The notes beneath the pieces are model-generated. The model ran no database searches, had not been told where the DNA came from, and saw nothing but the letters and a program-made list of their open reading frames with translations. From Nitrososphaeria archaeon (GTDB lineage Archaea > Thermoproteota > Nitrososphaeria > JACIWG01): a stretch of 64,000 nucleotides of DNA. Within the stretch, counting starts at the first letter, position 1. Every line of letters starts with the position of its first letter. Below, piece by piece: positions 3,719 through 56,658 of this stretch. The stretch covers positions 30,158 to 94,157 of the forward strand of contig JBEKIG010000008.1 of the NCBI GenBank assembly GCA_050011875.1. The letters are read 5' to 3'. Both the position numbers and the translations under genes were made by a program.

Positions 3719-4360
3719 TTAGGTTAAAAACGTTTTAACACGCTTTTCGATAGCGAGTATTACAAGTAGCGCACCGACAGAGGCAATTGTCCTTTCATAA
3801 ATAGTAAGTGGAAATATCACATACCACTCTCCAGAAGTTAATGAAAGCATAAATATCGAAAGGAAAGTGCCAGTCGCCTGCTGCGCAAAAGTTGAAGATA
3901 AAGTACTGAAGAATACGCTAAGACGGGAAGATTTTTTAAAGAAAAGGATTAGAACAGCGCAGCATGATGCGACGATATGAGGTAAAATATACCACCAAGC
4001 TGTAGGATATATTATGCAAAAAAAGAAAGAGAAAAACACCAGATATATTGCTGTTATGAAAGGAAATCCTCGTTTATTTAATCCTGCAAAAAAGGCACCT
4101 GACGTTGAAATTAAAACACTTAAAAACCCAAACGTAGCTGTCATAGAAATGAAATTGCCAGCTGCAAAACTGATGACCATTGAAAGGGCACCGTAATAAG
4201 GTCCAAGAATCCAACCGACAACAGGCGGAACAATTATGGCAAGACCAAATGAACTCGTACCTCCGATAACAGTTGTTCCTATAGGTACGAATGCAAGGAC
4301 TATATAAAGGGAGGCAAAGACTATGGCGGCAGAGAGCTTCCTGCTTGTAATTTTTGCCAT
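3719..4360 (-). CDS. Multi-pass membrane protein, ECF S-component-like
   Basis: About 6 hydrophobic helices; VGWILGPYYGAL resembles the S-component motif. Confidence 0.65.
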   Translation of the reverse strand: MAKITSRKLSAAIVFASLYIVLAFVPIGTTVIGGTSSFGLAIIVPPVVGWILGPYYGALSMVISFAAGNFISMTATFGFLSVLISTSGAFFAGLNKRGFPFITAIYLVFFSFFFCIIYPTAWWYILPHIVASCCAVLILFFKKSSRLSVFFSTLSSTFAQQATGTFLSIFMLSLTSGEWYVIFPLTIYERTIASVGALLVILAIEKRVKTFLT

Positions 4361-4513
4361 GAAAGTGAATTGCCAAAGCTACCTTATATAAATCTTATTC
4401 TGCTACAGATAGAATGATTTTGAGTTACATCGATAACTATTTTTTAGCCTTTTAACTAAGCTGGAAAGCTTATTATTCCTATTTATAAATTAGTGAACGT
4501 GTGTTGGTTGGCT

Positions 4514-5800
4514 ATGTCCAGGACATCACAATTTTCAGGGTTCTATAAATTGAGTCTAGAGGAGAAGTTGGAGATAGTGAAGGAGTTCTCAGGCCTGTCT
4601 GAAGATGAGGTTTTGCAGCTAAAGACGTCTTCGGCGTTAAAGATGGACAGTGCGGAAAGAATGATCGAAAATGTTATTGGAATAATGCCTGTTCCACTCG
4701 GCGTCGCCGTCAACTTCCTCATCAACGGCAGAGACTTCCTTGTACCTATGGCGATAGAGGAACCATCGGTGGTCGCGGCTGCCAGTAATGCGGCAAGAAT
4801 GGCAAGAATCAAAGGTGGCTTCTTAGCTTCCAGCACAGAGCCGATCATGATTTCACAGATACAGGTAATAAAAATAGAAGATCCCTTCCAAGGGAAGAAC
4901 GAAGTCTTTAACAGAAAGGCAGATATCATAAAACTGGCGAATGAGCAGGACCCTTTTCTTGTTTCAGTGGGCGGAGGAGTGAGAGACATTGGAGCGAAAG
5001 TTATAGACACCATCAGGGGGAAGATGCTTATCGTAGAACTGTACGTCGACTGCAAAGATGCTATGGGAGCGAATGTCGTTAACACGATGGCTGAGGCTGT
5101 GGCACCGCTGATAGAAGAAATAACTGGAGGAACCGTGCTCCTGCGTATTGTAAGCAACCTTGCAACCTTTAGATTAGCTCGGGCTTCTGCGACGTTCGAA
5201 AAAGATGTCTTAGGAGGCGAAGACGTTGTCGACGCCATTTTGGACGCGTACGCGTTTGCTGAAGCGGACCCGTACAGGTGCGCTACACACAACAAGGGAA
5301 TAATGAACGGTATCACCGCAGTCGTATTAGCAACCGGAAATGATACGAGAGCCATTGAGGCGGGAGCACACGCTTATGCGGCTAGGAATGGGGGATACGG
5401 TTCCCTAACGAAGTGGGAAAAGAATCGTTTGGGTGACCTTGTGGGCTTTATAGAACTCCCACTCGCAGTAGGCATTGTAGGCGGTGCAACGAAATCTAAC
5501 CCTATAGCGAAAATATGCACAAAAATACTTGGAATCAGGAGCGCAACCGAACTCGGAGAAGTTATCGCTTCTGTAGGATTAGCGCAGAACTTCGCAGCAT
5601 TAAGAGCCCTAGCTACCGAAGGAATACAGAAAGGGCACATGAAACTTCACGCGAGGAACATAGCTATTATGGCCGGAGCAACAGGCGAACTTGCCGATAA
5701 AATAGCAGAGAAGATGGTTCAAGAAGGTAAGGTTAGGATAGATAAGGCGAAAGAAATTCTCGAAAAGGTGAAAGAAAGTCAATCTTCAAAGACTGAGTGA
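4514..5800 (+). CDS. mvaA: Hydroxymethylglutaryl-CoA reductase, class II
   Basis: ENVIG, EEPSVVAAAS, DAMGAN, THNKGIMNG, EGIQKGHM; ATG at 4514 preferred. Confidence 0.93.
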   Translation: MSRTSQFSGFYKLSLEEKLEIVKEFSGLSEDEVLQLKTSSALKMDSAERMIENVIGIMPVPLGVAVNFLINGRDFLVPMAIEEPSVVAAASNAARMARIKGGFLASSTEPIMISQIQVIKIEDPFQGKNEVFNRKADIIKLANEQDPFLVSVGGGVRDIGAKVIDTIRGKMLIVELYVDCKDAMGANVVNTMAEAVAPLIEEITGGTVLLRIVSNLATFRLARASATFEKDVLGGEDVVDAILDAYAFAEADPYRCATHNKGIMNGITAVVLATGNDTRAIEAGAHAYAARNGGYGSLTKWEKNRLGDLVGFIELPLAVGIVGGATKSNPIAKICTKILGIRSATELGEVIASVGLAQNFAALRALATEGIQKGHMKLHARNIAIMAGATGELADKIAEKMVQEGKVRIDKAKEILEKVKESQSSKTE

Positions 5801-44943: not shown

Positions 44944-46059
44944 TTAGAGGCGTTGCGCGAAATCCGCGAGAGATCTCGACCAAAAATTGTTGACGTGACC
45001 TGTATCAGCGGTGTAATAAACGTATTTGATTTCTAATTCTTCTAGTTTTCCTTTAATCGATTCGTTTTGTTTTAGCAGAGGATCTCGTTTTCCACAGGAA
45101 ATATAGATCAATTTATACTGTTTAATCTGTTGTTTGACCTTGGATAATCTGTTTAGTAGTCTGTCGTCGATCATTCCCGAGCTGAACATCCCTGCAGCAG
45201 AGAACATATCAGGATGCGTCGTTATTAAGTTGAAAGTTTGCCCGCCACCCATAGATAACCCCGCGATCGCCCTAGCTTCTTTCAGGACTCGATATCTCGA
45301 CTCAATGAAGGGTACAACATCCTTGATAAAGTAGTTTGTATGCTCCTCCAGTATTTTTCTCCTAGTCTCCTCGCTGTCTAAAGCCTTTGAAAAGGGGGCA
45401 ATGTCTATCAAAGCTCCTACGGTCCCCTTGTGGCCATCAGGCATAACCACTATCATTTCCTTTGCTTTTTTCTCAGATATCAGATTATCCATGATGTTGT
45501 CTGCGTACACGCTGAAAATCCAGGTTAAAGAATCGGCTCTTGCACCATGAAGGAGGTAGAGTATCGGATACCTTTTAGTCGGTTTATATCCAGGTGGAAG
45601 ATAGACCGAGCAGCCCTTTACCTGCTTAAATGTTCTGCTGCCAAATTTGTGAAGAACTACTTCTCCGTGTGCGATATCGCTGGAAAATTCCCATGGCATA
45701 GGTTCCTCGGCTGGGATATCGACCTTATTTATGCTGCCTCCAAACGGGGTAAGCGAATTAACTCGACGTATTAGCGGGTTAAGGGGATCCAACGTCAATA
45801 GGCCGTCTACCGAAAATGAATAGGCGTATCTGCCTGGCAGCATCGGGACTGATGTAATGGTCCATATATTTTTGGAGGTTTTTTTCATAGGTATGTGTCC
45901 TCCAAGCACTCCTTCAAGATTAGGTGTTGCACGTGTTGTCTCAAATACAAGCTCAGAGGTCACTTCAACAGCTTTGGCGTTTTCACTTTTAAGGTTCAAT
46001 GTCACCGAATTATCTTTATTAACAATTGGAGACCTTAACTCTGCATCAGATTTATTCAT
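44944..46059 (-). CDS. Esterase (CE1/Fes-like alpha/beta hydrolase) with N-terminal E-set domain
   Basis: Y.F.VDG...DPLNP, YLPPGY, YLLHG, GLSMGG, C-terminal GH. Confidence 0.88.
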   Translation of the reverse strand: MNKSDAELRSPIVNKDNSVTLNLKSENAKAVEVTSELVFETTRATPNLEGVLGGHIPMKKTSKNIWTITSVPMLPGRYAYSFSVDGLLTLDPLNPLIRRVNSLTPFGGSINKVDIPAEEPMPWEFSSDIAHGEVVLHKFGSRTFKQVKGCSVYLPPGYKPTKRYPILYLLHGARADSLTWIFSVYADNIMDNLISEKKAKEMIVVMPDGHKGTVGALIDIAPFSKALDSEETRRKILEEHTNYFIKDVVPFIESRYRVLKEARAIAGLSMGGGQTFNLITTHPDMFSAAGMFSSGMIDDRLLNRLSKVKQQIKQYKLIYISCGKRDPLLKQNESIKGKLEELEIKYVYYTADTGHVNNFWSRSLADFAQRL

Positions 46060-46121
46060 GACTTTATATTTTACAAAGGACTATATTAGACTTCCTCACC
46101 CTTGAGGATTTAAAGCGATTT

Positions 46122-46445
46122 CTAAACAACTGTACTCCATAAATTCGTTGAATATGTCGCAGGCTCTATAAGTGTATGAAATTTTTGGCTGATTTTCTTC
46201 ATTTCTTCCTCTTGAAATATTTTTGTCATAACTTTTTCGATATCTGCTATACTATCGAACTCCCACATTTCAATATATAGTTCAGATATTGCACCATATT
46301 CTTGTTGAAAGAGTTTCCAAGATTTCACTCCTTTAAAAATTTCTGGGTTTTCCTCTTTGTATTTTAAGAATCTTTGAAGAGCTGGCATGAACTCTTCCCT
46401 CTTCTCTGATTTTATTACATAGGTTTCGACCATAAAAACGCTCAT
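46122..46445 (-). CDS. Hypothetical protein, dimeric alpha+beta barrel/NIPSNAP-like
   Basis: 107 aa, YIEMWEFDS pattern. Confidence 0.65.
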   Translation of the reverse strand: MSVFMVETYVIKSEKREEFMPALQRFLKYKEENPEIFKGVKSWKLFQQEYGAISELYIEMWEFDSIADIEKVMTKIFQEEEMKKISQKFHTLIEPATYSTNLWSTVV

Positions 46446-46579
46446 TTTTCGACCACTCTTTTCTAAACATTAAGATATATTGATAGTTATATATCTTTTC
46501 TGAAAGGAAAAATATGAAAAAGTAAATCTAAAAGGGAAGAATCCCGCTCGTAAATATCCGCACTGCCTTAAACGGTTAT

Positions 46580-46632
46580 AGATGAGCCGACAGTTTACAG
46601 CCAGACAGATGAGCAGTTATCTTATCAGAACC
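46580..46632. repeat. Orphan IS6-like terminal repeat abutting the transposon TSD
   Basis: Reverse complement GGTTCTGATAAGATAACTGCTCATCTGTCTGGCTGTAAACTGTCGGCTCAT aligns without gaps to the ends at 52636 and 53954. Confidence 0.7.
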
Positions 46633-46758
46633 CAGAAAAGGGTTCTGTTAACTTAGTCTAACATGCTTTAACATAATTGTTGCTGTTAACTGGACTGACA
46701 TGGCTTGGAATTTACGGTTCTGTCAACTGTCGGGTGATGATTAAGATAATTCATCACA

Positions 46759-47118
46759 CTAAGAACGTTCTGACAGTATTGATATAATATAGCCCACGAC
46801 AGAGCCCATTAAGAAAGCAAATGTTTCGCCACTAAGTTTCCCACTTTGAGTTAAGAGATAAGCACCAATAACGATACCTGCTATCAAAACGTATGATAGT
46901 GCACTCATTATCATATTCTTTAATCCAAAATAGGACTTTAGAGCATTTAACCCTTTGTCTGCAAACTCGCCGAGCTTATCAATTTGATATTTCTGATTTT
47001 CTAAAGTTTTTAGCTGCACATCTAAGGCTTTCAGTTGCACTTCACCCCAAGTCTTATCTGTCACAGCAGGGGGAACAGTGTAAATCGGTTGAACTCCTTT
47101 ATTCTCTTGATTTGACAT
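46759..47118 (-). CDS. Cargo protein, coiled coil plus 2 C-terminal TM helices
   Basis: 119 aa; own TTTATAA promoter; directly downstream of the transposase. Confidence 0.75.
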   Translation of the reverse strand: MSNQENKGVQPIYTVPPAVTDKTWGEVQLKALDVQLKTLENQKYQIDKLGEFADKGLNALKSYFGLKNMIMSALSYVLIAGIVIGAYLLTQSGKLSGETFAFLMGSVVGYIISILSERS

Positions 47119-47162
47119 ATATCAAATAATCTTTTGTATGATTATAAACTTGTTGCTAATAA

Positions 47163-48278
47163 TTAGTTATCATGTTGTTTTGAGGCATTTTGTATCAGCG
47201 TTATCCACTTGTTTTCTCCCTTGATCTTTATTCCACACTTGTCTGCTGGAGTTTCTCCGTTTAACGCCTCATGTGGTCTAATATAATTGTGGAATATTTG
47301 ACATCCTTTCAGAATCGGCGTATCTGTTTTCTTTAGTCCTCTCATAACCTTCTCTCGGTCTCGGATTTCCCCATTCATCCTCTCCATCTTATTGTTGTGA
47401 ACTTCCCCACTCAAGCGAATATCTCTGATGTGCTTAGTTCTCGGATTATAGTTTGTCCAAAACTCTTTCGTGCATGCGTCTTGATATGCTCGTAATCCAT
47501 CGGTTATTATAGTTAGAGGCTTCTTTCCAGCTATTTCTTTTCCTTCTCTAAATAATCCCCTTGCGTCATGGGTGTATTTTGTGTCAGCAACTTCTTGAGC
47601 TATCCAGAACCTTGTGTCGTCGTCCATTAAGGCGAACAGATACTTCATATTTCCCTTGATCTTAACATAAAGTTCATCTGCTCTCCAAGTGTCTCCAACG
47701 TTGGGCTTTATTTGGTCGAGATATTTCTCCATTAAACCTACATACTTTCCTATCCACTTATAGACAGCTACATGGGATATGTTTACGCCTTGTAGTCTCA
47801 AAAACTTCTGCACACTTCTTAAACTTTCTCCCGTGAAATAGAGTTGCATTGCGGAGGTTATTATTTGAGGGGTGGCGTGCATCTTCTCGAATCCGAGGTT
47901 TACTACAAAAGTTCTGGCACAACTTTTGCATAGGAATTGCTGAATATCACCATAATCGTTGTGTCTTATTCCATGCTTCACAACTTTATCGGATTGGCAT
48001 GCTGGACAAAGTTGAGGGTTAACTGGGCTTATAATTGTCTGGCTGGAAACACTCTGCCTTAACGCTAAACTTATCTCAACACCCCAGATGTGTTTGCATT
48101 TTTCCCCTCGAAACTGGTGGTCGGGGCAGGAACAAATCCATCCTAACTCTGTGCTAAATACTTCATATACACCGTTACCAGACTGAGAATTAACTTTGTA
48201 TAAATGACCGTCAATCCTTTTAATTTGCCCTTCAAGATGGGCTATTTCCTTCCCTTTTTCTTCCCGAAGGTTCATCAT
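47163..48278 (-). CDS. IS6-family DDE transposase with N-terminal SWIM zinc finger and zinc ribbon
   Basis: CSCPDH...CKH (SWIM), CPAC...CKSC, HTH, WRADE, ITDG, NNKMER, RPHEAL.GETPA. Confidence 0.92.
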   Translation of the reverse strand: MMNLREEKGKEIAHLEGQIKRIDGHLYKVNSQSGNGVYEVFSTELGWICSCPDHQFRGEKCKHIWGVEISLALRQSVSSQTIISPVNPQLCPACQSDKVVKHGIRHNDYGDIQQFLCKSCARTFVVNLGFEKMHATPQIITSAMQLYFTGESLRSVQKFLRLQGVNISHVAVYKWIGKYVGLMEKYLDQIKPNVGDTWRADELYVKIKGNMKYLFALMDDDTRFWIAQEVADTKYTHDARGLFREGKEIAGKKPLTIITDGLRAYQDACTKEFWTNYNPRTKHIRDIRLSGEVHNNKMERMNGEIRDREKVMRGLKKTDTPILKGCQIFHNYIRPHEALNGETPADKCGIKIKGENKWITLIQNASKQHDN

Positions 48279-48294
48279 CTTTCTTCCCTATCAT

Positions 48295-48360
48295 TATCTA
48301 CGTAGATATGGTATATTAAGGTATCGGTATCTACGTAGATAAGTGTTATATACGTAGATA
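48295..48360. promoter_or_regulatory. Three palindromic operators in the divergent transposase/AbrB promoter
   Basis: TATCTACGTAGATA at 48295-48308 and 48328-48341; TATATACGTAGATA at 48347-48360. Confidence 0.8.
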
Positions 48361-48374
48361 GGCTATACTAAAGC

Positions 48375-48584
48375 GTGCCCAAATGGAAGAAGGACGAGAC
48401 GAAATTTACGGTTAGTGTTAATTATGAAGAGAAACGTGGAGCGCAAAGCTCCATACCAAAACCTATAGTTGATGCCCTTGGTAAGCCCACAAGAATTACA
48501 TTTCTGTTGAGGGGCAAGAAAGTTGAGGTTAAAGCTTCGGACAGTTCTGAAGTAGTTCAGGCACAAAAAGCTCATATAGCGTAA
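48375..48584 (+). CDS. Small AbrB/SpoVT-like DNA-binding protein
   Basis: SSIPKPIVDALG..TRITF...GKKVEV swapped-hairpin pattern; divergent from the transposase. Confidence 0.7.
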   Translation: MPKWKKDETKFTVSVNYEEKRGAQSSIPKPIVDALGKPTRITFLLRGKKVEVKASDSSEVVQAQKAHIA

Positions 48585-48644
48585 TGACGTAAGGGGTCTG
48601 TGCGCACATCTCGATTTTGCGCTGACGATTGGGAGGGTTCCTGA

Positions 48645-50420
48645 TTGGCTCGAAAAGGACGGAAAGGGATGAAGGAGAAGCCGACCGTTATCAAGAGGAT
48701 TGTTGACAAGTATCTGGTCAAGACCCTTGGCTATGACCTTCAAACTCAACTTTTCTTTGACGAGAATGTGCAGGGGATGGGAGGAAAAGTCTGGGGATTC
48801 ACTGACATCGAGATAAAACTGGACGGAGAGAATACAGATGTCATAATCGAAGCCAAGCGTAGCGGCTTGACTTTAGGGAAGAGCGAAAAGGAGGAGGCTA
48901 TTAAATACGGTAACTCGAAAAAGATTATATGTGTAGTTCTCACTAATGGGACAGACTACATCATTTACAACTCGAACACGAAGAACCAACTGATGCTTAA
49001 CGGGCATATGATGGATGATATTCCTCGTTGCACCGATCTCCCCCTTTTCCTAAGCCGACTCAAAAGAGATTCTGACGATGTGACTTTGACGACGAACGAT
49101 GTCCTTCCTCGAAAGCTTGACAGAATCCTTCAGCCAGCTCTTGAGGACATATTCAGGGCAGAAGCCACAAGGTCGATGGCTGACTTGGAACACATCTTTA
49201 AGCGTTGCCACGACATTCTACGCGACAGTGAACATAAGACCCCTGTAGAGTCCGTTGAGGAGTTCTCGAAGGTCTTATTCCTCAAGTTGTATTCGGAGAA
49301 ATTCTTCAGCGGCACTTTCAAGAACACGAAGCTGAAGCCTGAAGACATAACCTCATTCAACGAAATTGCGCAAGAGTCTAACCCTGCGACGGTGAAGAAA
49401 TTGGTGGTGGAGAATTTTAACGCCTTTATACAGGCTTACAGTGAAGTATTCGATAACAGTGATAGATTCAAGATAAAGAAACCTGAGACCTTCAAAGAGC
49501 TTGTCGATGTGCTTGCGCCAGTCAACTTCGATAGGGATTTTGATGCTGATATTAAGGGCAGGGCTTACGAGCACTTCCTTGCTACGGTTCTGAGAGGAAG
49601 TAAGCTGGGGCAGTTCTTCACCCCCCGTCCCATAGTGAAGATGATGGTCAGGCTTGTCAATCCAAAACCTGACGACATCGTCCTTGACCCAGCATGCGGC
49701 AGTGGAGGCTTCTTAATCAAAGCTATGCAAGTCGTTAATTGGCATATTGACCAGAACGAACACGAAGGGCAGGCAGTAAAAGATGGGAGGCATGAGCACC
49801 TTAGACTGCGTTGTCTTTATGGGGCTGATGCAGGGGTCGTAGCAAAGACAGCCAAGATGAATATGATTCTGGCAGGTGATGGGCATGTTAATATTATTCA
49901 TGAAAACTCACTCACCGAGGAAGTCGATTTTCTACATCTTGACCAAGAACCTCTCTTTGAATCCATTATGACAAACCCACCCTTCGGTCTGAACGAGAAG
50001 ATGAAGGAGAGCCAGCTCGACAAGTATGACGTCCCAATATCGAAGGCGCAATCGCTTTTTCTTCAACTCATGGTTCGAAAGGCTAAACCAAACGGTCTCA
50101 TCTGCTCGGTGGTCGATGAGGGTGTTCTAAACACTCCGACATATAAAGCACTCAGAAAGTATCTTTTCAGGAAGTGCTTCATTCTTGCGGTCTTCTCTCT
50201 TCCCGTCACAACGTTCAAACCTCACTACAGTGGAGTTAAGGCTTCAGTCCTCTTAATGAGAAGGAAGGAGAACGAGCTGGTTAAGCAGAGCTTTCCCGTC
50301 TTCGGCTACGACCTTCAATACGTAGGGTATGATAACACTGGACGAACGGTGGACGAAAACGACATTGAACCAGCCTTGGAGAGCTGGAACGCTCATGTAG
50401 CCAAACTTGTGGGTGCTTAA
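48645..50420 (+). CDS. Fused restriction endonuclease/N6-adenine methyltransferase (type IIB/IIG-like RM subunit)
   Basis: N-terminal D..IEAK nuclease and LTNG; GQFFTPR, DPACGSGGF, NPPF. Confidence 0.9.
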   Translation: MARKGRKGMKEKPTVIKRIVDKYLVKTLGYDLQTQLFFDENVQGMGGKVWGFTDIEIKLDGENTDVIIEAKRSGLTLGKSEKEEAIKYGNSKKIICVVLTNGTDYIIYNSNTKNQLMLNGHMMDDIPRCTDLPLFLSRLKRDSDDVTLTTNDVLPRKLDRILQPALEDIFRAEATRSMADLEHIFKRCHDILRDSEHKTPVESVEEFSKVLFLKLYSEKFFSGTFKNTKLKPEDITSFNEIAQESNPATVKKLVVENFNAFIQAYSEVFDNSDRFKIKKPETFKELVDVLAPVNFDRDFDADIKGRAYEHFLATVLRGSKLGQFFTPRPIVKMMVRLVNPKPDDIVLDPACGSGGFLIKAMQVVNWHIDQNEHEGQAVKDGRHEHLRLRCLYGADAGVVAKTAKMNMILAGDGHVNIIHENSLTEEVDFLHLDQEPLFESIMTNPPFGLNEKMKESQLDKYDVPISKAQSLFLQLMVRKAKPNGLICSVVDEGVLNTPTYKALRKYLFRKCFILAVFSLPVTTFKPHYSGVKASVLLMRRKENELVKQSFPVFGYDLQYVGYDNTGRTVDENDIEPALESWNAHVAKLVGA

Positions 50421-51876
50421 ATTGTCCAAGAACATAGAAATATCGTTAGATGAGATTGAGGAAGGTATCTACGACAGGACGGAGTATCGGCTTGATTTGA
50501 AGTTCTACTCTCCCGTTTTGAAGGACAGCTATGCGCAACTCTTCAAGGGGAAATATCCTATGAAGTTCGTAAAAGACTTAGCCGATTCCGTAGATTCAGG
50601 GGTTACCATCGAAAATAATCTTGAATACAAGTATCTACAGATAAGCGATATAGACGGTGAGCTTGGCGAAGTAGAGGACTATTCCGAGCTTCAGGGCATC
50701 GACCTGCCTTCTCGTGCAAAACTCACACTCATAAAGAATGACATTGTAATATCATCCGTTAGACCGCTCCTGCGTGAAATCGCAATAATCCCAGAAGAAC
50801 TCGATGGGCAGATTGGGACGAACGGATTCATTCAGCTAAGATGCAAAGAAAACGAAATTGAACCTGAGTATCTTTTACACATCTTACGATGTAGGCAGAT
50901 AACAGACGAACTCGACAGACGTTCGAGTGCACTAAACTACCCCGCTATAAGCGAACATGATGTGAAGTATCTCAAGATACCATGCCCACCTCGTGACGTG
51001 AGGCTCGAACTAATTAAGCGATTCTCGGATGCTACAGCCGAAGTTAAGAACATCAAGGATAAGGTCGATATACTTCAGACCGAGCGTAGCCAAATACTCC
51101 CAGCCAAGCTGAGAACTGGAAACATTAAATCCGTGCCAAAAGATGTCGAGTTCTCCTTCGATGAAGCCCAGTCTAACGAAAGCCGTCTTGATGTCAAGTT
51201 CTATAGATATTCGAGGAAGCATCCTTTCGAGCATCTCCCTCTAAAGCAGATATACCCTACCTTGGTCACATTCTCAACGGAAAGAATCAATTTAGACTCT
51301 CAGCCCGATGAGGAGTTTTTGCAGGTAACGGTTAGCAGGAAGAAAGGTGTAGTCTTCAGAGAAAAGAATCAAGGGAATGACATAGGAACCAAAGCGCAAA
51401 CCCTCATCCGCACATGTGATGTCATCGTATCTCGGATTGACCTTTACAATGGTTGCATTGGAATTGTACCCGAAGACCTTGATGGGGCAATTGTCACGAG
51501 AGACTTCATGGTGCTCAAGCTTCATAAGAAAGAAATCGACCCGATTTTCTTCCGAGAAGTGCTGAAGGACAAGGAGATGGCTGACTACTTCTATGCGTTC
51601 GCCGTCGGTGCCACTGGCAGGAAGAGGATCGACCAGAAAGTGTTCCAAGGTCTGAAGATACCTGTTTTGCCTCTTGATCAGCAGTTCAAGATTCGAGATT
51701 TGATTCAGGCGAAAGACAGAGCCATCGAGGAGCTCCAAGTCGAAGCCCGAAGAATTTACAGAGAGGCAGAAGCAGGATTCATGGATGCTCTCGGAGTTCC
51801 AAAGCCGAAGAAGAATCCTGATGACATATCAACTAATCCAGCTCATTCGCTAAAGAAGGCTATCTTCTCGTTATAA
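50407..51876 (+). CDS. HsdS-like specificity subunit with two TRDs
   Basis: Two repeats of RLD.KFY...IP.PP/IPVLP plus coiled-coil spacer; overlaps the RM gene. Confidence 0.88.
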   Translation: MWVLKLSKNIEISLDEIEEGIYDRTEYRLDLKFYSPVLKDSYAQLFKGKYPMKFVKDLADSVDSGVTIENNLEYKYLQISDIDGELGEVEDYSELQGIDLPSRAKLTLIKNDIVISSVRPLLREIAIIPEELDGQIGTNGFIQLRCKENEIEPEYLLHILRCRQITDELDRRSSALNYPAISEHDVKYLKIPCPPRDVRLELIKRFSDATAEVKNIKDKVDILQTERSQILPAKLRTGNIKSVPKDVEFSFDEAQSNESRLDVKFYRYSRKHPFEHLPLKQIYPTLVTFSTERINLDSQPDEEFLQVTVSRKKGVVFREKNQGNDIGTKAQTLIRTCDVIVSRIDLYNGCIGIVPEDLDGAIVTRDFMVLKLHKKEIDPIFFREVLKDKEMADYFYAFAVGATGRKRIDQKVFQGLKIPVLPLDQQFKIRDLIQAKDRAIEELQVEARRIYREAEAGFMDALGVPKPKKNPDDISTNPAHSLKKAIFSL

Positions 51877-52046
51877 TCATGCTCGCCGAACGAGGAATAG
51901 ACAAAACTGTCCTCCACAAGTTAATTGGCAGGGTATAACCCAACAGTTTACGGTCACAAAAAATTAGACGAGAACCAGACAACTTTACAAAGCCCACAAC
52001 TGCAATAGATTAAAGAAATATCAGATAATATGTAACTACAATTACG

Positions 52047-52493
52047 TCAACGAATTATCAGTTCATAATCTTTTTTCTTTACATATTCTCCTGATAAAGA
52101 TATAGTCTTATGATAGGTTTTGCCAGTTGGATACTTTTGAACTTTTGTTAAGGATAAAACAAGGAGAGGTTTCTTATAACTAAGCTGTGTTTGACTGGTA
52201 GTATAATAATCGTAAAATTCTTTCTCAGAGAGAACTAAACTTTCTTTATACTTTGCCAGAATTTCTTTGTAAGAAAGAAACTCTATGTTAGCTATTTCTG
52301 CTTCTCCTGCCAATGTTTTTCCAGAACCTGAAACATAAAGAAAAAGTTTCATCCCTTTTTTAAGACGATATTTCTTTAAATCTCTTGGAGTAAAATGAAT
52401 TTTTTTAACGAAAACCGTTTTCTGCCCATCCATTATTCTATGAACTTGTTGCGGTAGAATAGGAAACACAACACCTACAACTTCTTCCTTCAT
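52047..52493 (-). CDS. DUF365 family (PUA/ASCH-like) protein
   Basis: VGVVFPI...R...KTVFVK, GMKL.LY.S...GEAEI. Confidence 0.8.
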   Translation of the reverse strand: MKEEVVGVVFPILPQQVHRIMDGQKTVFVKKIHFTPRDLKKYRLKKGMKLFLYVSGSGKTLAGEAEIANIEFLSYKEILAKYKESLVLSEKEFYDYYTTSQTQLSYKKPLLVLSLTKVQKYPTGKTYHKTISLSGEYVKKKDYELIIR

Positions 52494-52530
52494 AAACTAT
52501 GTTAAAAATAACGACATTATTATGCTTTAA

Positions 52531-52636
52531 ATGATAAAGGTTGAAGGACAAAACAAATGGGTGACTTTAATCCAGAACGTAAGCTATCAACCGAAAGGTA
52601 AAACCAACATCAGTCAACCGCAGAGGTAACAGAACC
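52531..52636 (+). pseudogene. Transposase C-terminal relic (32-codon mini-ORF) running into an IS6-like IR end
   Basis: MIKVEGQNKWVTLIQNVSYQPKGKTNISQPQR* versus IKIKGENKWITLIQNAS; ends in GTAACAGAACC. Confidence 0.8.
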
Positions 52637-52671
52637 TTTATTTATAACAAGCATAAATATTATGTGATAAT

Positions 52672-53154
52672 ATGACCGAATTAACTGCAACAGAAGGAAA
52701 TGATATTAATTTAAAAAGAAGAGACTACTTATTAGCTCTCCTATCTTCTTTAGGTGATAAAAATACCGAAAATAATCCAATTGATGGAAGACTCCGTCTA
52801 ATGAAAGGGCTTTTTCTTATAGCTGAAGAGGTTGATAAAAGTTTATTGAATGAATTTGAACCGTGGACGTATGGTCCTATCAACTTTAAAGTTTATACTG
52901 ACCTTGAAGATTTACAGAAGGAAAAATTATTGATGGATGATAAAACCCAAAGGATAAGTATTGGTTATTATTATTTGACAAAAAAAGGAAAAGCTAAGGC
53001 AAAGAGAATAATTGAATCATTTAATGATGAGCAAATTGACAAAATTAGAGACATCAAGTCTACAATCACAAAGAACTCTCTGAGAGACCTTCTAAAACTT
53101 GTATATTCAAAATATCCTGAATACGCAACTAAGAGTGTAATTAATATCTCATAA
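52672..53154 (+). CDS. SocA/Panacea (DUF4065/YwgA-like) protein
   Basis: GRLRLMKGLFL, FEPWTYGP, Y.LT.KG, LLKLVYSKYPEY. Confidence 0.72.
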   Translation: MTELTATEGNDINLKRRDYLLALLSSLGDKNTENNPIDGRLRLMKGLFLIAEEVDKSLLNEFEPWTYGPINFKVYTDLEDLQKEKLLMDDKTQRISIGYYYLTKKGKAKAKRIIESFNDEQIDKIRDIKSTITKNSLRDLLKLVYSKYPEYATKSVINIS

Positions 53155-53166
53155 TGATGAACTGGA

Positions 53167-53919
53167 TTGACTCTCATCACAGCTCTTGTTTGTTGCGATG
53201 GCGTAGTGATGGCATCTGAAAGTCAAGCCACAACGAGTGCAACTGGTACCCCTGTTAAACAAAAGACCTCCAAGATTAAACAATGCTCTAACAGCCCTAT
53301 TATTTGGGGAGCAGCAGGTGATGTATCAGTTATTCAAAAAATAGAAAAGGAATTAGATAGACAAATATCTCAAATGTCAAATATCTCGACACAGTTAGTA
53401 GTTGATATTGTTAAGAACGCTATGGTGGGCATTAGACAGGAAACGATAAGCAGATACCGTGGTATATATGGTTCCCTGATTGGTGATAGAAAAGCCCCAG
53501 CAGCAGTTACAATGGTTGTTGGCTACGAACAAAGTTTACCTACTATAATCATAATCGATCAAGATGGCGAAGATGTTGATTGCCATGAATTTGGTTATGC
53601 AGCTATCGGTATTGGTGATATTTTTGCTCATTCTCTTCTCCACAACCACAAAATTGGCGATATTACTTGCCTCAGAGGTCAAGTTTTAGCATACAAGGTT
53701 ATTAAAGAAGCTATAGAAGTGGGAGCCTATGGTTTAGGCGAGCCAGTAGATGTTTGGGCTATCCAGTTTGCGGATAACAAGCCCAAGATTAATCATCTAT
53801 CACAAGAGCAAATTAACGCCCTTGAAGATACTCATGATGCACTGAAAAAACTTGAGATAAATCTCTTCAAAGAGCTACAGATGGGTGAGCCCAGCAATAC
53901 TTCATCACCCGACGGTTAA
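53167..53919 (+). CDS. Proteasome-beta-like Ntn hydrolase without propeptide
   Basis: M-TLITALVCCDGVVMASESQAT: Thr1, Glu17, Lys in SKI; WGAAG; AAIGIG; TTG start. Confidence 0.82.
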   Translation: MTLITALVCCDGVVMASESQATTSATGTPVKQKTSKIKQCSNSPIIWGAAGDVSVIQKIEKELDRQISQMSNISTQLVVDIVKNAMVGIRQETISRYRGIYGSLIGDRKAPAAVTMVVGYEQSLPTIIIIDQDGEDVDCHEFGYAAIGIGDIFAHSLLHNHKIGDITCLRGQVLAYKVIKEAIEVGAYGLGEPVDVWAIQFADNKPKINHLSQEQINALEDTHDALKKLEINLFKELQMGEPSNTSSPDG

Positions 53920-53961
53920 CAGGGAGAACAATCACCCGACATCTTAACAAAACCAGTCTAT

Positions 53962-54010
53962 CTAAATTTAGAAGGACAAAACAAGTGGATAACCTTAATA
54001 CGAAATGTCA
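53962..54010 (+). pseudogene. Second transposase C-terminal relic
   Basis: LNLEGQNKWITLIRNV; nucleotide match AAAACAAGTGGATAAC to the transposase 3' end. Confidence 0.8.
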
Positions 54011-54072
54011 ATTATTGTCACAATTGTTATAGAAAGGTTAAATATGCATCCAATTTACTGTATCCATAATAA

Positions 54073-54483
54073 GTGATCATTTTGCCGTTATCGGACGATG
54101 CTAAAGAATTTCTAAACAATTATTTTGAAAAAACAATTGGTCTTCCCATAAAGTTTGAATATGTATGGTTTTATCGCCCTGTTTTTCACGAACTTCCTTT
54201 TGAGAATATTGAACCAATAGAAGATATTAAAAGGGCAAGTGGCTGTGAAGCACTTTATGTCCTATTTAAAATGCGTTATCAAAATAGAGATTATGAATAT
54301 GAAGTAAGATTTAGTAATAATAATAGAGAGTTAATTTTGAAGAATTGCTTCCTCAAGTATTTTAGTATATTTGCTCATGAACAACCTGAAGATGTAGCTA
54401 AAGATATAAACAAAAAAATGGAAGGGACGGCTAAGCTCGTCTGCATGGTTATTGTGACAAGCTTGGAGAAGCTTAACTCTTAG
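54073..54483 (+). CDS. Hypothetical cargo protein
   Basis: 136-aa ORF with BRE/TATA-like GAAAGGTTAAATA upstream. Confidence 0.6.
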   Translation: MIILPLSDDAKEFLNNYFEKTIGLPIKFEYVWFYRPVFHELPFENIEPIEDIKRASGCEALYVLFKMRYQNRDYEYEVRFSNNNRELILKNCFLKYFSIFAHEQPEDVAKDINKKMEGTAKLVCMVIVTSLEKLNS

Positions 54484-54808
54484 TTTCGAGCAGCTTAATC
54501 AATTGTGGTCGTATTTTGTCGAATTTATCAGTAAGCTCGTAAAATCGCCCAGCTCTACCTGCTGGAGAATTTGGGCGTTCTATGAACTTAAATTGGCTTT
54601 TAACGAATCCATTCTCTTCTAAAGTCGACAAATGAAATGATACAAGCTGTCGGTCTGCTCCAATCTTTTCTGCTATTTGATCAATATAGCGGGGCTGTCC
54701 ATCTTCTTTTAGTGCATTTATGATTTTCCATCGCATCGGATGTAGCACTAACACGCCATCCTTTATTGTTTTTTCATTCTTAGGTTCCTGACTCATATAT
54801 CCTAACAC
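54473..54808 (-). CDS. ArsR-like winged-helix regulator
   Basis: LHPMRWKII..L, IAEKIG..RQLVSFHL..LE..G.V, FYELT. Confidence 0.85.
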   Translation of the reverse strand: MLGYMSQEPKNEKTIKDGVLVLHPMRWKIINALKEDGQPRYIDQIAEKIGADRQLVSFHLSTLEENGFVKSQFKFIERPNSPAGRAGRFYELTDKFDKIRPQLIKLLETKS

Positions 54809-54840
54809 CTATCATTATGCGTTATACACTCCTATATCAA

Positions 54841-54923
54841 GTTATTGTATTTGCACGTAAAAAAGATATTAGCATATGCTCAAGGTTATTGTATTTGCAC
54901 GTAAAAAAGATATTAGCATATGC
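54841..54923. repeat. Exact 39-bp direct repeat (44-bp period) in a divergent promoter region
   Basis: GTTATTGTATTTGCACGTAAAAAAGATATTAGCATATGC at 54841-54879 and 54885-54923. Confidence 0.92.
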
Positions 54924-54958
54924 AAATATAATTTTATATAGTACCATCATAATATCTA

Positions 54959-55156
54959 ATGTGCGATAAAATGTCAAAGGATAATGATTGGCTTAACATC
55001 GTCGGAGCCTTATTAGGTATCGTTGCGAGTTTAATGACAATAGGTGCTTATTTCAATAGAACTACCTGTCCATGTGATGGTACGAGACTCCCCCTCGTAG
55101 GCGACACCGAAATTTTTGGAAAACGTTACTGTGCAACATGCAAAGAATGGCATTAA
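54959..55156 (+). CDS. Small TM-anchored zinc-ribbon protein
   Basis: One TM helix then CPCD...CATC. Confidence 0.65.
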   Translation: MCDKMSKDNDWLNIVGALLGIVASLMTIGAYFNRTTCPCDGTRLPLVGDTEIFGKRYCATCKEWH

Positions 55157-55270
55157 TCACCAAATGGTGGAAAAGAGGGCACCGAGAACCTGATGCGTTT
55201 GTTTTTTGTTCAGCATAAATCAAACTATTTACTCTAAATCTTTTAAAGTCTCAAAATATAGATTGTTGGT

Positions 55271-55762
55271 ATGAAAACCGCCATCTTTTTGGTTGGAGAT
55301 TATAATAGTGGCAAATCATCCATAGTTAGAGCATTAACTGGTTGCTCCAGAGCACGTATTTGGAAGGTGATTAATGCATCAGGAAGAAAGATAAATGCTC
55401 TTGTCATATTATCTACATTCCAAGAAAACCCTATTAAAGCAATAATCCCACCAGAAGACTTACCAAATGAATTAGAGAGACAATATGGAGATTACGAATT
55501 GTTAATATGTCCGATTGAAATAAGCCACTCGGAAGATCATAAATCTGAGGAATATCTGAAGTCATTCATGTCTAAAAAATATGATGTGAAAATAACTCTT
55601 ATTGAAAAAGGATACGACGGCAGATCACCAGCCCCATCAGACCTTAGCCGAGTCAGAGACTTTGCTTCAACTAATGGAATTACCCTACTCCCCTTAGATA
55701 TATCGAATAGTGATGAACATACGGAATCCCGAAAAATAAGAGACAAACTTTACCCACCTTAA
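55271..55762 (+). CDS. Small P-loop NTPase of unknown family
   Basis: GDYNSGKS Walker A at the N-terminus; no clear DxxG or NKxD. Confidence 0.75.
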   Translation: MKTAIFLVGDYNSGKSSIVRALTGCSRARIWKVINASGRKINALVILSTFQENPIKAIIPPEDLPNELERQYGDYELLICPIEISHSEDHKSEEYLKSFMSKKYDVKITLIEKGYDGRSPAPSDLSRVRDFASTNGITLLPLDISNSDEHTESRKIRDKLYPP

Positions 55763-55888
55763 TAATTCTCCACGCCATGTTAGTCTGGTTAACAGCAACA
55801 AGAACGTTAGAGCATGTTTGATTAAGTTAACAGAACCCAGAAAAGGAATACTTAAATATATCCTAATTACAAATAATAATGAATACTT

Positions 55889-56404
55889 ATGTCCAAAGAG
55901 AAAAAGGGAGCACTTGTAGTTAAGAAGGCAAATAAGCCTGCGATTGTCGTTAAAAAACCTCAACCCAGTGAAATTCAAGAGTTCAACAAGTTGTTAGATA
56001 CGTTTCGGAGTGAGTTAATTTGGGATCCCTTCCGAGGATTCGAGTGGCCTATTGAATATGAACTCCCGACACGAATACCCTATGTTGATGTTATCGACTC
56101 TGGTAACGAGTATGAAGTAAGAGCAGAGCTTCCAGGGTTGAAAAAGGAAAACGTGAAGATTGAAGTTGGGACGAACGAGTTGTCGCTGACTGCTAAATCT
56201 GATGTTGAGAAGGAGGAAAAGGAGGGAAAAACCTATTTGCACAGGGAAAGAGCTTTCTCCGCATTCCGCAGATATATAGGATTCCCCGAAGGCGTAGATG
56301 TTGAAAAAGTATCAGCTAACATAGCTGAAGGTATCCTCGAAATAAAACTTCCCAAACTCGAGCACAAGCCTGAAACGAAAAGAAAACAGATAACAATCCA
56401 ATAA
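55889..56404 (+). CDS. Hsp20/alpha-crystallin small heat-shock protein
   Basis: VDV, AELPG, F.R.I.FP, A....GILEIKLPK, ITI. Confidence 0.95.
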   Translation: MSKEKKGALVVKKANKPAIVVKKPQPSEIQEFNKLLDTFRSELIWDPFRGFEWPIEYELPTRIPYVDVIDSGNEYEVRAELPGLKKENVKIEVGTNELSLTAKSDVEKEEKEGKTYLHRERAFSAFRRYIGFPEGVDVEKVSANIAEGILEIKLPKLEHKPETKRKQITIQ

Positions 56405-56658
56405 ACCTTTTTTTAACCATCCTTCGTATATGCCAGAATTGGGATTTACATGTGTATTTAGTTAATAACATCGTTAATTCATAGTATTTTCCAAGTCTAG
56501 GATTTATCCTGAACGTATCTGCAACTTATGGAGTATCTTAAGACCTAATCTGATTTGTGATATTTTCGTTTAACTTGTATCTCCCTTAACTATTAAGAAA
56601 CACCAGCGAGAACAGCACATTAACCAATAAATAATGAAGATTAAGGTCAACTGTAAAC

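Follow-up and report, generated by a model that had tools for sequence, protein, structure and literature searches.

The window analysed here is a 64-kb stretch of the genome of a Nitrososphaeria archaeon (2.64 Mb, 40.7% GC, 119 contigs), and between positions 46641 and 55837 it holds a 9,197-bp unit with terminal inverted repeats, a target duplication, one full transposase gene and 11 further open reading frames (ORFs). The terminal inverted repeats extend over 70 nt (46640–46709 against 55769–55838) and are 86% complementary. Both outer ends carry the tip GGTTCTGTTAAC, the left one at 46641–46709 and the right one, with its tip at 55837, at 55769–55837 (both listed on the plus strand), and 44 of 52 positions are identical between them. 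An 8-bp target-site duplication, CAGAAAAG, can be read directly from the sequence, with its left copy at 46633–46640 and its identical right copy at 55838–55845. Every junction of the element is bridged by contigs of two metagenome runs, and one metagenome scan returned an identical 14.5-kb contig for the region. Three peat-metagenome runs contain this stretch, the third only as short identical pieces at low depth that are uninformative on context; no alternative joints, empty-site forms or sub-element forms occur in the contigs of the three runs, which drop rare variants. The unit may have moved as a whole. As a member of a very large IS6-like family in archaea, it is probably a mosaic transposon with cargo that grew by self-targeted insertion and was subsequently eroded.

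Transposase and two-part ends

The transposase gene (47163–48278, minus strand) is intact and encodes a 371-aa DDE transposase that, based on Pfam and NCBIfam models, contains a SWIM zinc finger, a zinc ribbon and an IS6-type catalytic core. The protein matches the Pfam model DDE_Tnp_IS240 (E=1.1e-15, 58.4 bits, cutoff 27), and the best of nine transposase models is the NCBIfam equivalog transpos_IS6, with a score just under its cutoff (120.5 bits, cutoff 125). An IS1/IS1595-type zinc domain is also recognised by NCBIfam (37 bits, cutoff 28). In an alignment with six homologues, D201, D260 and E299 and the Cys/His zinc ligands are invariant. A sequence search of the PDB with this protein gave no matches, while homologues number 5,633 at E<=0.001, with identities of 64–82% among the 120 matches listed.

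The ends of the family were characterised from 80 loci fetched from genomes titled Nitrososphaeria, Bathyarchaeia, Methanoregula and others. Inverted-repeat pairs surround the transposase gene at 29 of these loci, 25 of which went into a 26-nt end profile; L020, L040, L067 and L083 were dropped from training, as their repeat arms do not start at the GGTTCTG tip. The profile thus represents 50 ends of 25 family elements, all in other genomes. It fits the training loci by construction and is independent of the window, its genome and the remaining loci. Each of the 50 training ends starts with GGTTCTG, the word used to register them, and the profile consensus is GGTTCTGTTAAC. At both ends of every training element, a terminal site of the form GGTTCTGTTAAC-N4-box is accompanied, about 30 nt further in, by a subterminal site of the form TGTTAAC-N3-box. 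The box is common to both sites and both ends within one element and differs between the 25 training elements. With the profile, a tip pair is found around the transposase gene at 41 of the 80 loci, and a perfect 8-bp duplication flanks 33 of the 40 evaluable pairs; the duplication has one mismatch in two further pairs and is missing from the other five. The 26 tip pairs with near-identical ends span 1,970–7,477 bp, indicating that cargo is normal in the family. Family elements with transposase identities of 56–61% are also present on contigs of genomes with bacterial titles, namely Limnocylindrales, Williamwhitmania and 'bacterium' (L019, L042, L053, L069), reflecting either binning error or cross-domain spread.

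The profile gives five hits of at least 14 in the window, at 46632 (minus strand, 14.3), 46641 (plus, 17.9), 52636 (minus, 24.5), 53954 (minus, 24.9) and 55837 (minus, 15.8), all within the interval 46632–55837. The whole genome has 29 hits of at least 15, compared to 2, 2 and 4 in three block-shuffled genomes, and the ends therefore stand well clear of chance. The bare 9-mer TAACAGAAC is barely enriched (43 sites, 30 expected), and for this reason the profile was used in place of motif counting. Searching the window's genome with 100-nt ends by blastn-short returned tips only and was uninformative.

A preliminary description of this DNA had listed five ends in one orientation, at 51976, 52636, 53954, 55190 and 55837, besides an end at 46632. 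The profile identifies 52636, 53954 and 55837 as ends, and 46632 is likewise a real one (14.3). The positions that had been regarded as weaker matches, 51976 and 55190, indeed score only -3.8 and -8.8; 51976 is probably a decayed end, while 55190 (55152–55190, plus strand) has no subterminal site and matches nothing beyond GGTTCT, and it shares 12–24 of 52 positions with the other ends, which is the null range, so it was rejected. The reported gap-free alignment of 46632, 52636 and 53954 over about 50 bp was reproduced, with 28–35 of 52 positions in common against 16.4 +/- 3.1 (maximum 30 in 20,000 pairs) for 52-mers of the window ending in AACC. Each of these three ends matches itself best at a 27-nt shift, indicating that the reported 27-bp internal repeat is the pair of terminal and subterminal sites.

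Most ends in the window share a direction, and their boxes differ. Those at 46632, 51976, 52636, 53954 and 55837 point right, and only 46641 and a collapsed single site at 46716–46740 point left. Box A (CTAACATG / CTGACATG) is found at the two outer ends, 46641 and 55837; box B (CGGGTGAT) at 53954 and at the single left-pointing site; box C (CGGTTGA) at 52636; and box D (CGGCTCAT) at 46632, outside the element. The subterminal site of 51976 is B/D-like. The internal ends have 21–22 of 52 positions in common with the left A-type end, which is near background.

The solo D end is a two-part end occupying 46582–46632 (plus strand), with its tip pointing rightward toward the element. The C end (52586–52636, plus strand) is a relic two-part end that is 89–95% identical to the ends of C-type elements in a same-genus genome (L103, L105). 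The B end (53904–53954, plus strand) is also a relic two-part end; its tip reads GGTTTTG, with the change at a base that all 50 training ends have in common, and the stop codon of the peptidase gene described below (TAA, 53917–53919) falls within its subterminal site, as had been described for the protease gene. The second left-pointing end (46716–46740, plus strand) is stacked 75 nt inside the left tip and consists of a single site with box B. It was detected as an inverted-repeat match, in which 46720–46740 and 53902–53922 are 90% complementary over 21 nt. The candidate at 51935–51976 (plus strand, direct-repeat family D5) points right and combines a tip hexamer with a subterminal-type site that has 4 mismatches in 19 to that of 46632. 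This combination occurs at three sites in the genome, of which the other two are profile-confirmed ends, and at none in five shuffled genomes, suggesting that 51976 is probably a decayed end.

Stacked and solo ends are also found elsewhere. In L043 (6997/7062) and L050 (5918/5993), a second complete end begins 3–5 nt past the subterminal site of the outer end, and L050 (9945/10045/10153) has further co-oriented tips 100 and 208 nt inward. Stacked co-oriented ends also lie on contig C2 of the window's genome (72678–72770). All of these stacks resemble the window pair 46641/46716, and extra co-oriented outer ends are present in L015, L057 and L063. The window's genome possesses three full transposase genes and two fragments versus about 29 profile-positive ends, most of which are solo. 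A-like ends are located at C1:28736, C3:25961 and C11:73251, with no transposase gene near any of them. Contig C2 also contains a 4.77-kb element (C2:36712–41482; L002 3713–8483) that has perfect 22-nt inverted repeats and the same tip, and is flanked by a direct repeat of 9 nt (8 nt when one of the tips is extended by a base); its transposase is only 31% identical to that of the window. An A-like site lies inside the end of another copy on C2, whose transposase is 73% identical to that of the window, and faintly hints that the resident lineage may serve A-type ends. The resident enzyme would presumably recognise these ends.

Cargo genes and transposase remnants

The region to the left of the transposase gene contains a 119-aa ORF (46759–47118, minus strand, taken from the ORF list) that has no Pfam, NCBIfam or PADLOC match and no homologue in the 80 loci. 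On the other side, three copies of a 33-nt palindromic repeat with the core TATCTACGTAGATA (48289–48373, direct-repeat family D1) lie between the transposase gene and the divergent orf69 and probably form an operator or promoter region. The 69-aa product of orf69 (48375–48584, plus strand) recurs beside family transposase genes: tblastn places it next to the transposase gene in L039, L043 and L025 and detects it in L042 (48–67% identity), and it may be a regulator of these genes.

The remaining cargo begins with restriction-modification genes (48645–51876, plus strand) that encode a 591-aa protein with a nuclease-like N-terminus and an N6 methylase, and a 489-aa specificity subunit. These genes match N6_Mtase (7.9e-42), HSDR_N_2 and Methylase_S in Pfam, and MTase_II (6.2e-89) and Specificity_I (3.5e-30) in PADLOC. 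They are followed by a gene for a DUF365 protein (52047–52493, minus strand; Pfam DUF365 9.6e-13, PADLOC candidate PDC-M11B 9.1e-8) and by a module of a SocA/Panacea-like gene and a proteasome/HslV-like peptidase gene (52672–53919, plus strand). The peptidase matches Pfam Proteasome (2.8e-11), the match to SocA_Panacea (0.0048) is under the curated cutoff, and the module has a match to the PADLOC model PDC-M19A (4.4e-15). The last block (54073–55762) encodes a 136-aa hypothetical protein (plus strand), an ArsR-type regulator (minus; Pfam HTH_5 3.1e-9), a 65-aa Cys-rich membrane protein (plus) and a 163-aa P-loop protein (plus). Two perfect 39-nt direct repeats (54841–54923, family D3), 44 nt apart, separate the ArsR gene from the gene for the Cys-rich protein, and short-read contigs of two runs break at these repeats. 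As several of its genes match PADLOC models, the cargo looks defence-related.

According to the preliminary description, the ends fall between modules, with the hypothetical, ArsR and Cys-rich membrane protein genes forming one module and the P-loop gene another. The seams at genuine ends stand. Since 55190 is not an end, it separates nothing, and these last two groups are a single module. It had also been left open whether the modules always co-occur, and comparison with other family elements reveals that they are not one fixed block. The SocA-peptidase pair occurs by itself between the left end and the transposase gene of the 4-kb L040 element (32% and 42% identity), and a SocA-like gene is also present in L075. 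In L019 and L073, methylase and S genes lie divergently upstream of the transposase gene, as do methylase-like genes in L011, L015 and L021. The peptidase module was found in one of 301 genomes of the class, namely the window's own, and was absent from the other 300, while a metagenome scan for it returned only the identical copy of the window itself; L040 is therefore the one source for its module context. The DUF365 protein, the 136-aa ORF, the Cys-rich protein and the P-loop protein have no matches in the 80 loci. Copies of single modules were not found in 41 relatives, 301 class genomes (peptidase only), one metagenome scan and the contigs of three runs, a thin sampling.

Two of the internal ends are accompanied by remnants of transposase genes. 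The first is a 3' stub (52534–52629, plus strand) that runs from codon 350 and whose frame ends inside the 52636 end. It was identified by tblastn, which matches 52534–52590 to residues 350–368 (E=2.8e-4), and by direct reading. The second 3' stub (53962–54024, plus strand; tblastn to residues 350–370, E=0.01) begins 7–8 nt past the 53954 tip and forms an inverted-repeat pair (I2) with the 3' end of the resident transposase gene. A cryptic end at codon 350 was considered as the cause of both stubs and rejected, as no tip-like sequence is present there. The 80 loci contain 28 3' stubs as against one 5' fragment. The 3' stubs start at residues 216–345, and some are pieces of frameshifted genes (e.g., L087). 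The 5'-truncated transposase genes are those of L017, L020, L023, L025–L027, L043, L048, L051, L056–L058, L062–L064, L067, L070, L076, L080, L085 and L089.

Because their boxes differ, because stubs adjoin them and because the 53954 tip is mutated, the internal ends are taken to be the remains of once-autonomous sister elements and not recombination sites. They are relics of at least three other family lineages, represented by 53954 together with 46716 (B), by 52636 (C) and probably by 51976.

Insertion site and end-targeting

The form of the unoccupied site is provided by a genome of the same genus (G001). At locus L104 of this genome, positions 4768–4988 correspond to window 46424–46642 (93%), and positions 4968–5629, continuing directly, correspond to window 55827–56492 (90%), giving a site that lacks the 9.2 kb. 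L104 keeps the solo D end (tip 4978, profile 23.6), and consequently the 46632 end predates the insertion. The syntenic locus in the same genome, L103 (esterase 95%, Hsp20 94%), is occupied by another element, 4.9 kb long, whose ends are C-type and whose cargo is unrelated; it sits in the same place, uses the same target word and has a short tip-like relic on its left. In a further genome (G003), a solo A-like end is located at the equivalent spot upstream of hsp20; this 22-nt tip match is the only trace of an A-type end in 40 relatives.

In three genomes from two genera, a family end thus lies at a constant distance before hsp20, and its type differs: A in the window (55838–56404), C or D in G001 (L103 9287–9855; L104 4978–5542) and A-like in G003 (L107 6641–7200). 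This pattern reflects a contribution of the ends to hsp20 expression or else a hot spot for insertion that an old solo end seeded. The left flank of the window differs from that of L103, where the NIPSNAP-like gene and solo D end of the window (46115–46621) are absent (4169–4378), while the D end and 160 bp of its upstream flank match the second hsp20 locus of G001, L104. With its matches split between L103 and L104, the left flank looks recombinant of both loci.

The abutment of the element against a resident end is not confined to the window. The 80 loci contain 144 profile hits of at least 15; a left tip comes within 40 nt after a right tip in eight cases, in all of which the two are exactly 8 bp apart and their boxes differ. 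The window junction, 46632 / CAGAAAAG / 46641, is a ninth such case, and in L050 one element lies within a junction of this kind, with AGAAATAG on both sides. A search of 401 class genomes for CAGAACC-N(0-20)-GGTTCTG gave at least 75 distinct sites; among the 75 listed, 29 have an 8-nt spacer, eight a 7-nt and four a 9-nt spacer, and the other 18 spacer lengths have about two sites each on average. Three of the 29 come from unpublished genomes (G131, G326), leaving 26 of 72 without them, and the counts are not independent, as related genomes probably share some orthologous sites. Pairs of end-8bp-end junctions were observed in three genomes (G134:C1:782061 and 805702, 24 kb apart; G204:C134:2289 and 5332; G240:C4:294169 and 296630). 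The two spacers are identical in G240 and reverse complements in G134 and G204. Identical spacers fit insertion into an existing junction, and reverse-complementary ones would fit replicative intramolecular inversion, as described for IS26; the latter pairs are the sole hint that cointegrates may form by replication, as in the IS6/IS26 family.

These observations suggest, at somewhat less than an even chance, that any family end, even a dead solo one, serves as a landing pad, that elements with unlike boxes join at the bond between tip and flank with an 8-bp spacer, and that relic ends thereby feed arrays of defence-type genes. If so, such an end would be a transposon-based functional counterpart of the integron attachment site, and the window element would be an eroded array. 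The site upstream of hsp20 would then be a worked example, as two relatives have a solo end there, one genome carries the 4.9-kb element and another the 9.2-kb mosaic.

Assembly of the mosaic and relation to known systems

The structures of the ends and their neighbours suggest the following history. The transposase would bind a two-part end, in which the terminal site and the subterminal site about 30 nt inward each have a conserved core (GGTTCTGTTAAC or TGTTAAC) followed by an element-specific box of about 8 nt, and would cut at the GG tip and join the element into an 8-bp staggered target. The element, bounded by its A-type ends and the duplication CAGAAAAG, landed exactly against the tip of the pre-existing solo end 46632, and related elements would repeatedly have inserted beside or inside one another's ends, aided by the end preference of the family. 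Deletions, possibly mediated by the transposase, would then have removed the inner left ends and most transposase genes, so that one working transposase gene, the outward-pointing ends and the adjoining cargo survived. This is the order of events that we infer. An element truncated from the left retains its right end, and therefore neither the co-orientation of the ends nor their position at seams would need a special process; the mirrored order of the boxes (A, B on the left and B, A on the right) fits nesting of a B-type element in the A-type one, at its transposase gene. The preliminary description had likewise inferred serial accretion of cargo and ends from related elements, and the differing boxes, the stubs and the presence of ends from several family members agree with that inference.

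Several observations weigh against this history. No 8-bp duplication surrounds any pair of internal ends (GAATTTAC precedes 46716 and AGTCTATC follows 53954), and every nesting step therefore calls for a further deletion. Left partners are missing for the C end and for 51976. The two stubs both start near codon 350, which may mark a hot spot or the limit of detectable homology. Deletion driven by tips fails as a general cause of stubs, as the tip of another element lies within 10 nt of the start in one case of 28 (L017). The closest relatives of the resident transposase, in L011 (82%) and L050 (65%), have D-type and not A-type boxes. L104 is a paralogous or recombinant locus and not the syntenic one, and thus shows the form of the unoccupied site, not its exact ancestor. 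Finally, no second copy of the 9.2-kb composite was found in another context, either in the genomes of relatives or in the metagenome scan.

The last of these points would suit a Russian-doll nest that was built in place and never moved whole, with the A-type element arriving first at the site upstream of hsp20 and B-, C- and D-like elements then entering it; the target duplication and the unoccupied site would then reflect the first of these events alone. This alternative is unlikely, though it deserves consideration. The mirrored order of 46641 and 46716 on the left and 53954 and 55837 on the right agrees with it, as does the 53962 stub, which fits insertion into the transposase gene of the A element. 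The missing inner duplications and left partners count against it as well, a simple nest would not place DUF365 on the side where it lies, and the data fit assembly in place and assembly before a last move alike. It is improbable that the element instead grew outward by alternative ends, with its left end pairing with ever more distant right-pointing ends, which would be at hand owing to the family's habit of landing beside ends, so that a longer segment moved at each round and the bypassed ends were kept inside. Such growth would account for the shared orientation of the internal ends and the outer right end, and solo ends are common enough to supply it (about 29 profile hits versus three full transposase genes in the window's genome); in L063, moreover, a single right end is matched by two left ends (7438, 8481) that are nearly identical, and L015 and L057 each have an extra co-oriented outer end. 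However, boxes are element-specific and those of the internal ends are unlike that of the left end (21–22 of 52 positions), making such pairing doubtful, while the stubs beside 52636 and 53954 show that these ends came within whole elements, and one-sided growth does not predict the stacked second left end at 46716.

The preliminary description had preferred an integron-like process, in which each end would be a recombination site closing a cassette and modules would be captured and reshuffled singly. The co-oriented ends at module seams, the occurrence of modules separately in other elements and the recruitment of new elements by solo ends are what such a platform would produce, but it is very improbable here and the proposal was not sustained. 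There is no tyrosine or serine recombinase among the 15 ORFs from 44944 to 56404 or among the element's own 12 ORFs, and there are no attC-like sites. The sites instead equal the terminal inverted repeats of whole transposons, which generate 8-bp duplications; their boxes differ, 53954 is mutated at an invariant tip position, 51976 is decayed, transposase stubs adjoin two of them, and no insertion or excision of a single module was seen in the relatives and contigs sampled. A chance origin of the motifs, as mere matches to a short word rich in A and T, has next to no probability. The bare 9-mer is barely enriched and 55190 is indeed such a match, but the profile separates the genome from its shuffled versions by 29 hits to 2–4, all five window hits lie within 9.2 kb, and the two-part layout common to the ends matches the ends of intact elements elsewhere. 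The preferred reading thus remains that of a mosaic transposon, and its value is mostly corrective, as it describes the co-oriented sites as the wreckage of nested and adjacent insertions and not as a new cassette system.

The main interest lies in the family-wide end-targeting rule, more than in the single mosaic. Little has been described of the mobile elements in archaea of soil and peat (Nitrososphaeria, Bathyarchaeia, Methanoregula), and this transposase has thousands of close homologues. If these elements routinely carry restriction-modification and candidate defence genes and prefer one another's ends, they would be a main route for the assembly and exchange of defence islands. Additionally, element-specific boxes beside a common tip amount to a natural experiment in transposase–DNA specificity, and the exact 8-bp abutment amounts to a rule of target choice. 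The literature searched (including PMC6563490, PMC7986276, PMC6807381 and PMC11529989) contains, in its accessible text, no description of the family's cargo, two-part ends or end-targeting; supplementary IS lists may list the family.

Among the closest known systems are the insertion sequences of the IS6/IS26 family (IS26, IS257, IS6100). The DDE transposase of the element matches IS6 models, an 8-bp target duplication is common to both, and the family tip GGTTCTGTT equals the first 9 nt of the bacterial terminal consensus GGTTCTGTTGCAAA, which is given with a GG start and a G at position 7 (PMC6807381); only these 9 nt agree. According to the account in PMC7986276, IS26 also tends to act at existing copies and to build cargo arrays, as is observed here. 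In the narrow sense, IS6/IS26 elements are about 0.8 kb long with the transposase as their only gene, whereas the window element spans 9,197 bp and carries 11 other ORFs, and the archaeal elements examined here generally measure 2–9 kb and carry several genes as cargo; in that account, only one IS6 member is named as having a passenger, and this is one gene (PMC7986276). Repeats of about 14 nt contrast with archaeal ends of about 55–70 nt that have two parts and element-specific boxes, and the archaeal transposase is extended at its N-terminus by about 190 residues that contain two zinc modules. The conservative reaction of IS26 is described as requiring two IS26 copies and active transposase (PMC7986276), whereas the junctions here involve unlike elements with an 8-bp spacer and a duplication. 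A full IS copy at each boundary, as in a compound or pseudo-compound transposon, is not present: there is one full transposase gene, and the right arm contains only a 21-codon transposase stub, 1.8 kb from the end. The element is consequently IS6-like in the broad sense by its transposase, tip and duplication, and falls outside the narrow definition in size, gene content and end structure. Harmer and Hall argue that archaeal 'IS6' elements are not true members of the IS6 family and should be separated. Asgard aloposons were considered as relatives and rejected, as they are described as integrating at tRNA genes and carrying giant genes (PMC8813620).

The IS30 and IS3/IS911 families share with the present elements the use of a resident end as target and end-spacer-end junctions. 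In those families the junction spacer is as long as the element's own duplication, and the junctions, with spacers of 2–4 bp, usually form between identical copies and are reactive. They are different transposase families, and the archaeal junctions have an 8-bp spacer and unlike partners. Insertion of IS30 and IS3 family elements into terminal repeats is recorded in PMC7986276.

Nested or clustered transposons in resistance islands and ISEcp1-type capture likewise give mosaic units with relic ends inside and cargo taken from neighbours. ISEcp1 uses weak surrogate ends, whereas the inner ends here are genuine ends of sister lineages, with no evidence of use by the resident enzyme. The likeness to integron cassettes lies in the co-oriented short sites 3' of gene modules and in a gene-collecting platform, but the window offers no integrase and no movement of a single cassette was seen. 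Integron attC sites are imperfect palindromes that fold as single strands, whereas the sites in the window are direct repeats 27 nt apart that match the terminal repeats of transposons.

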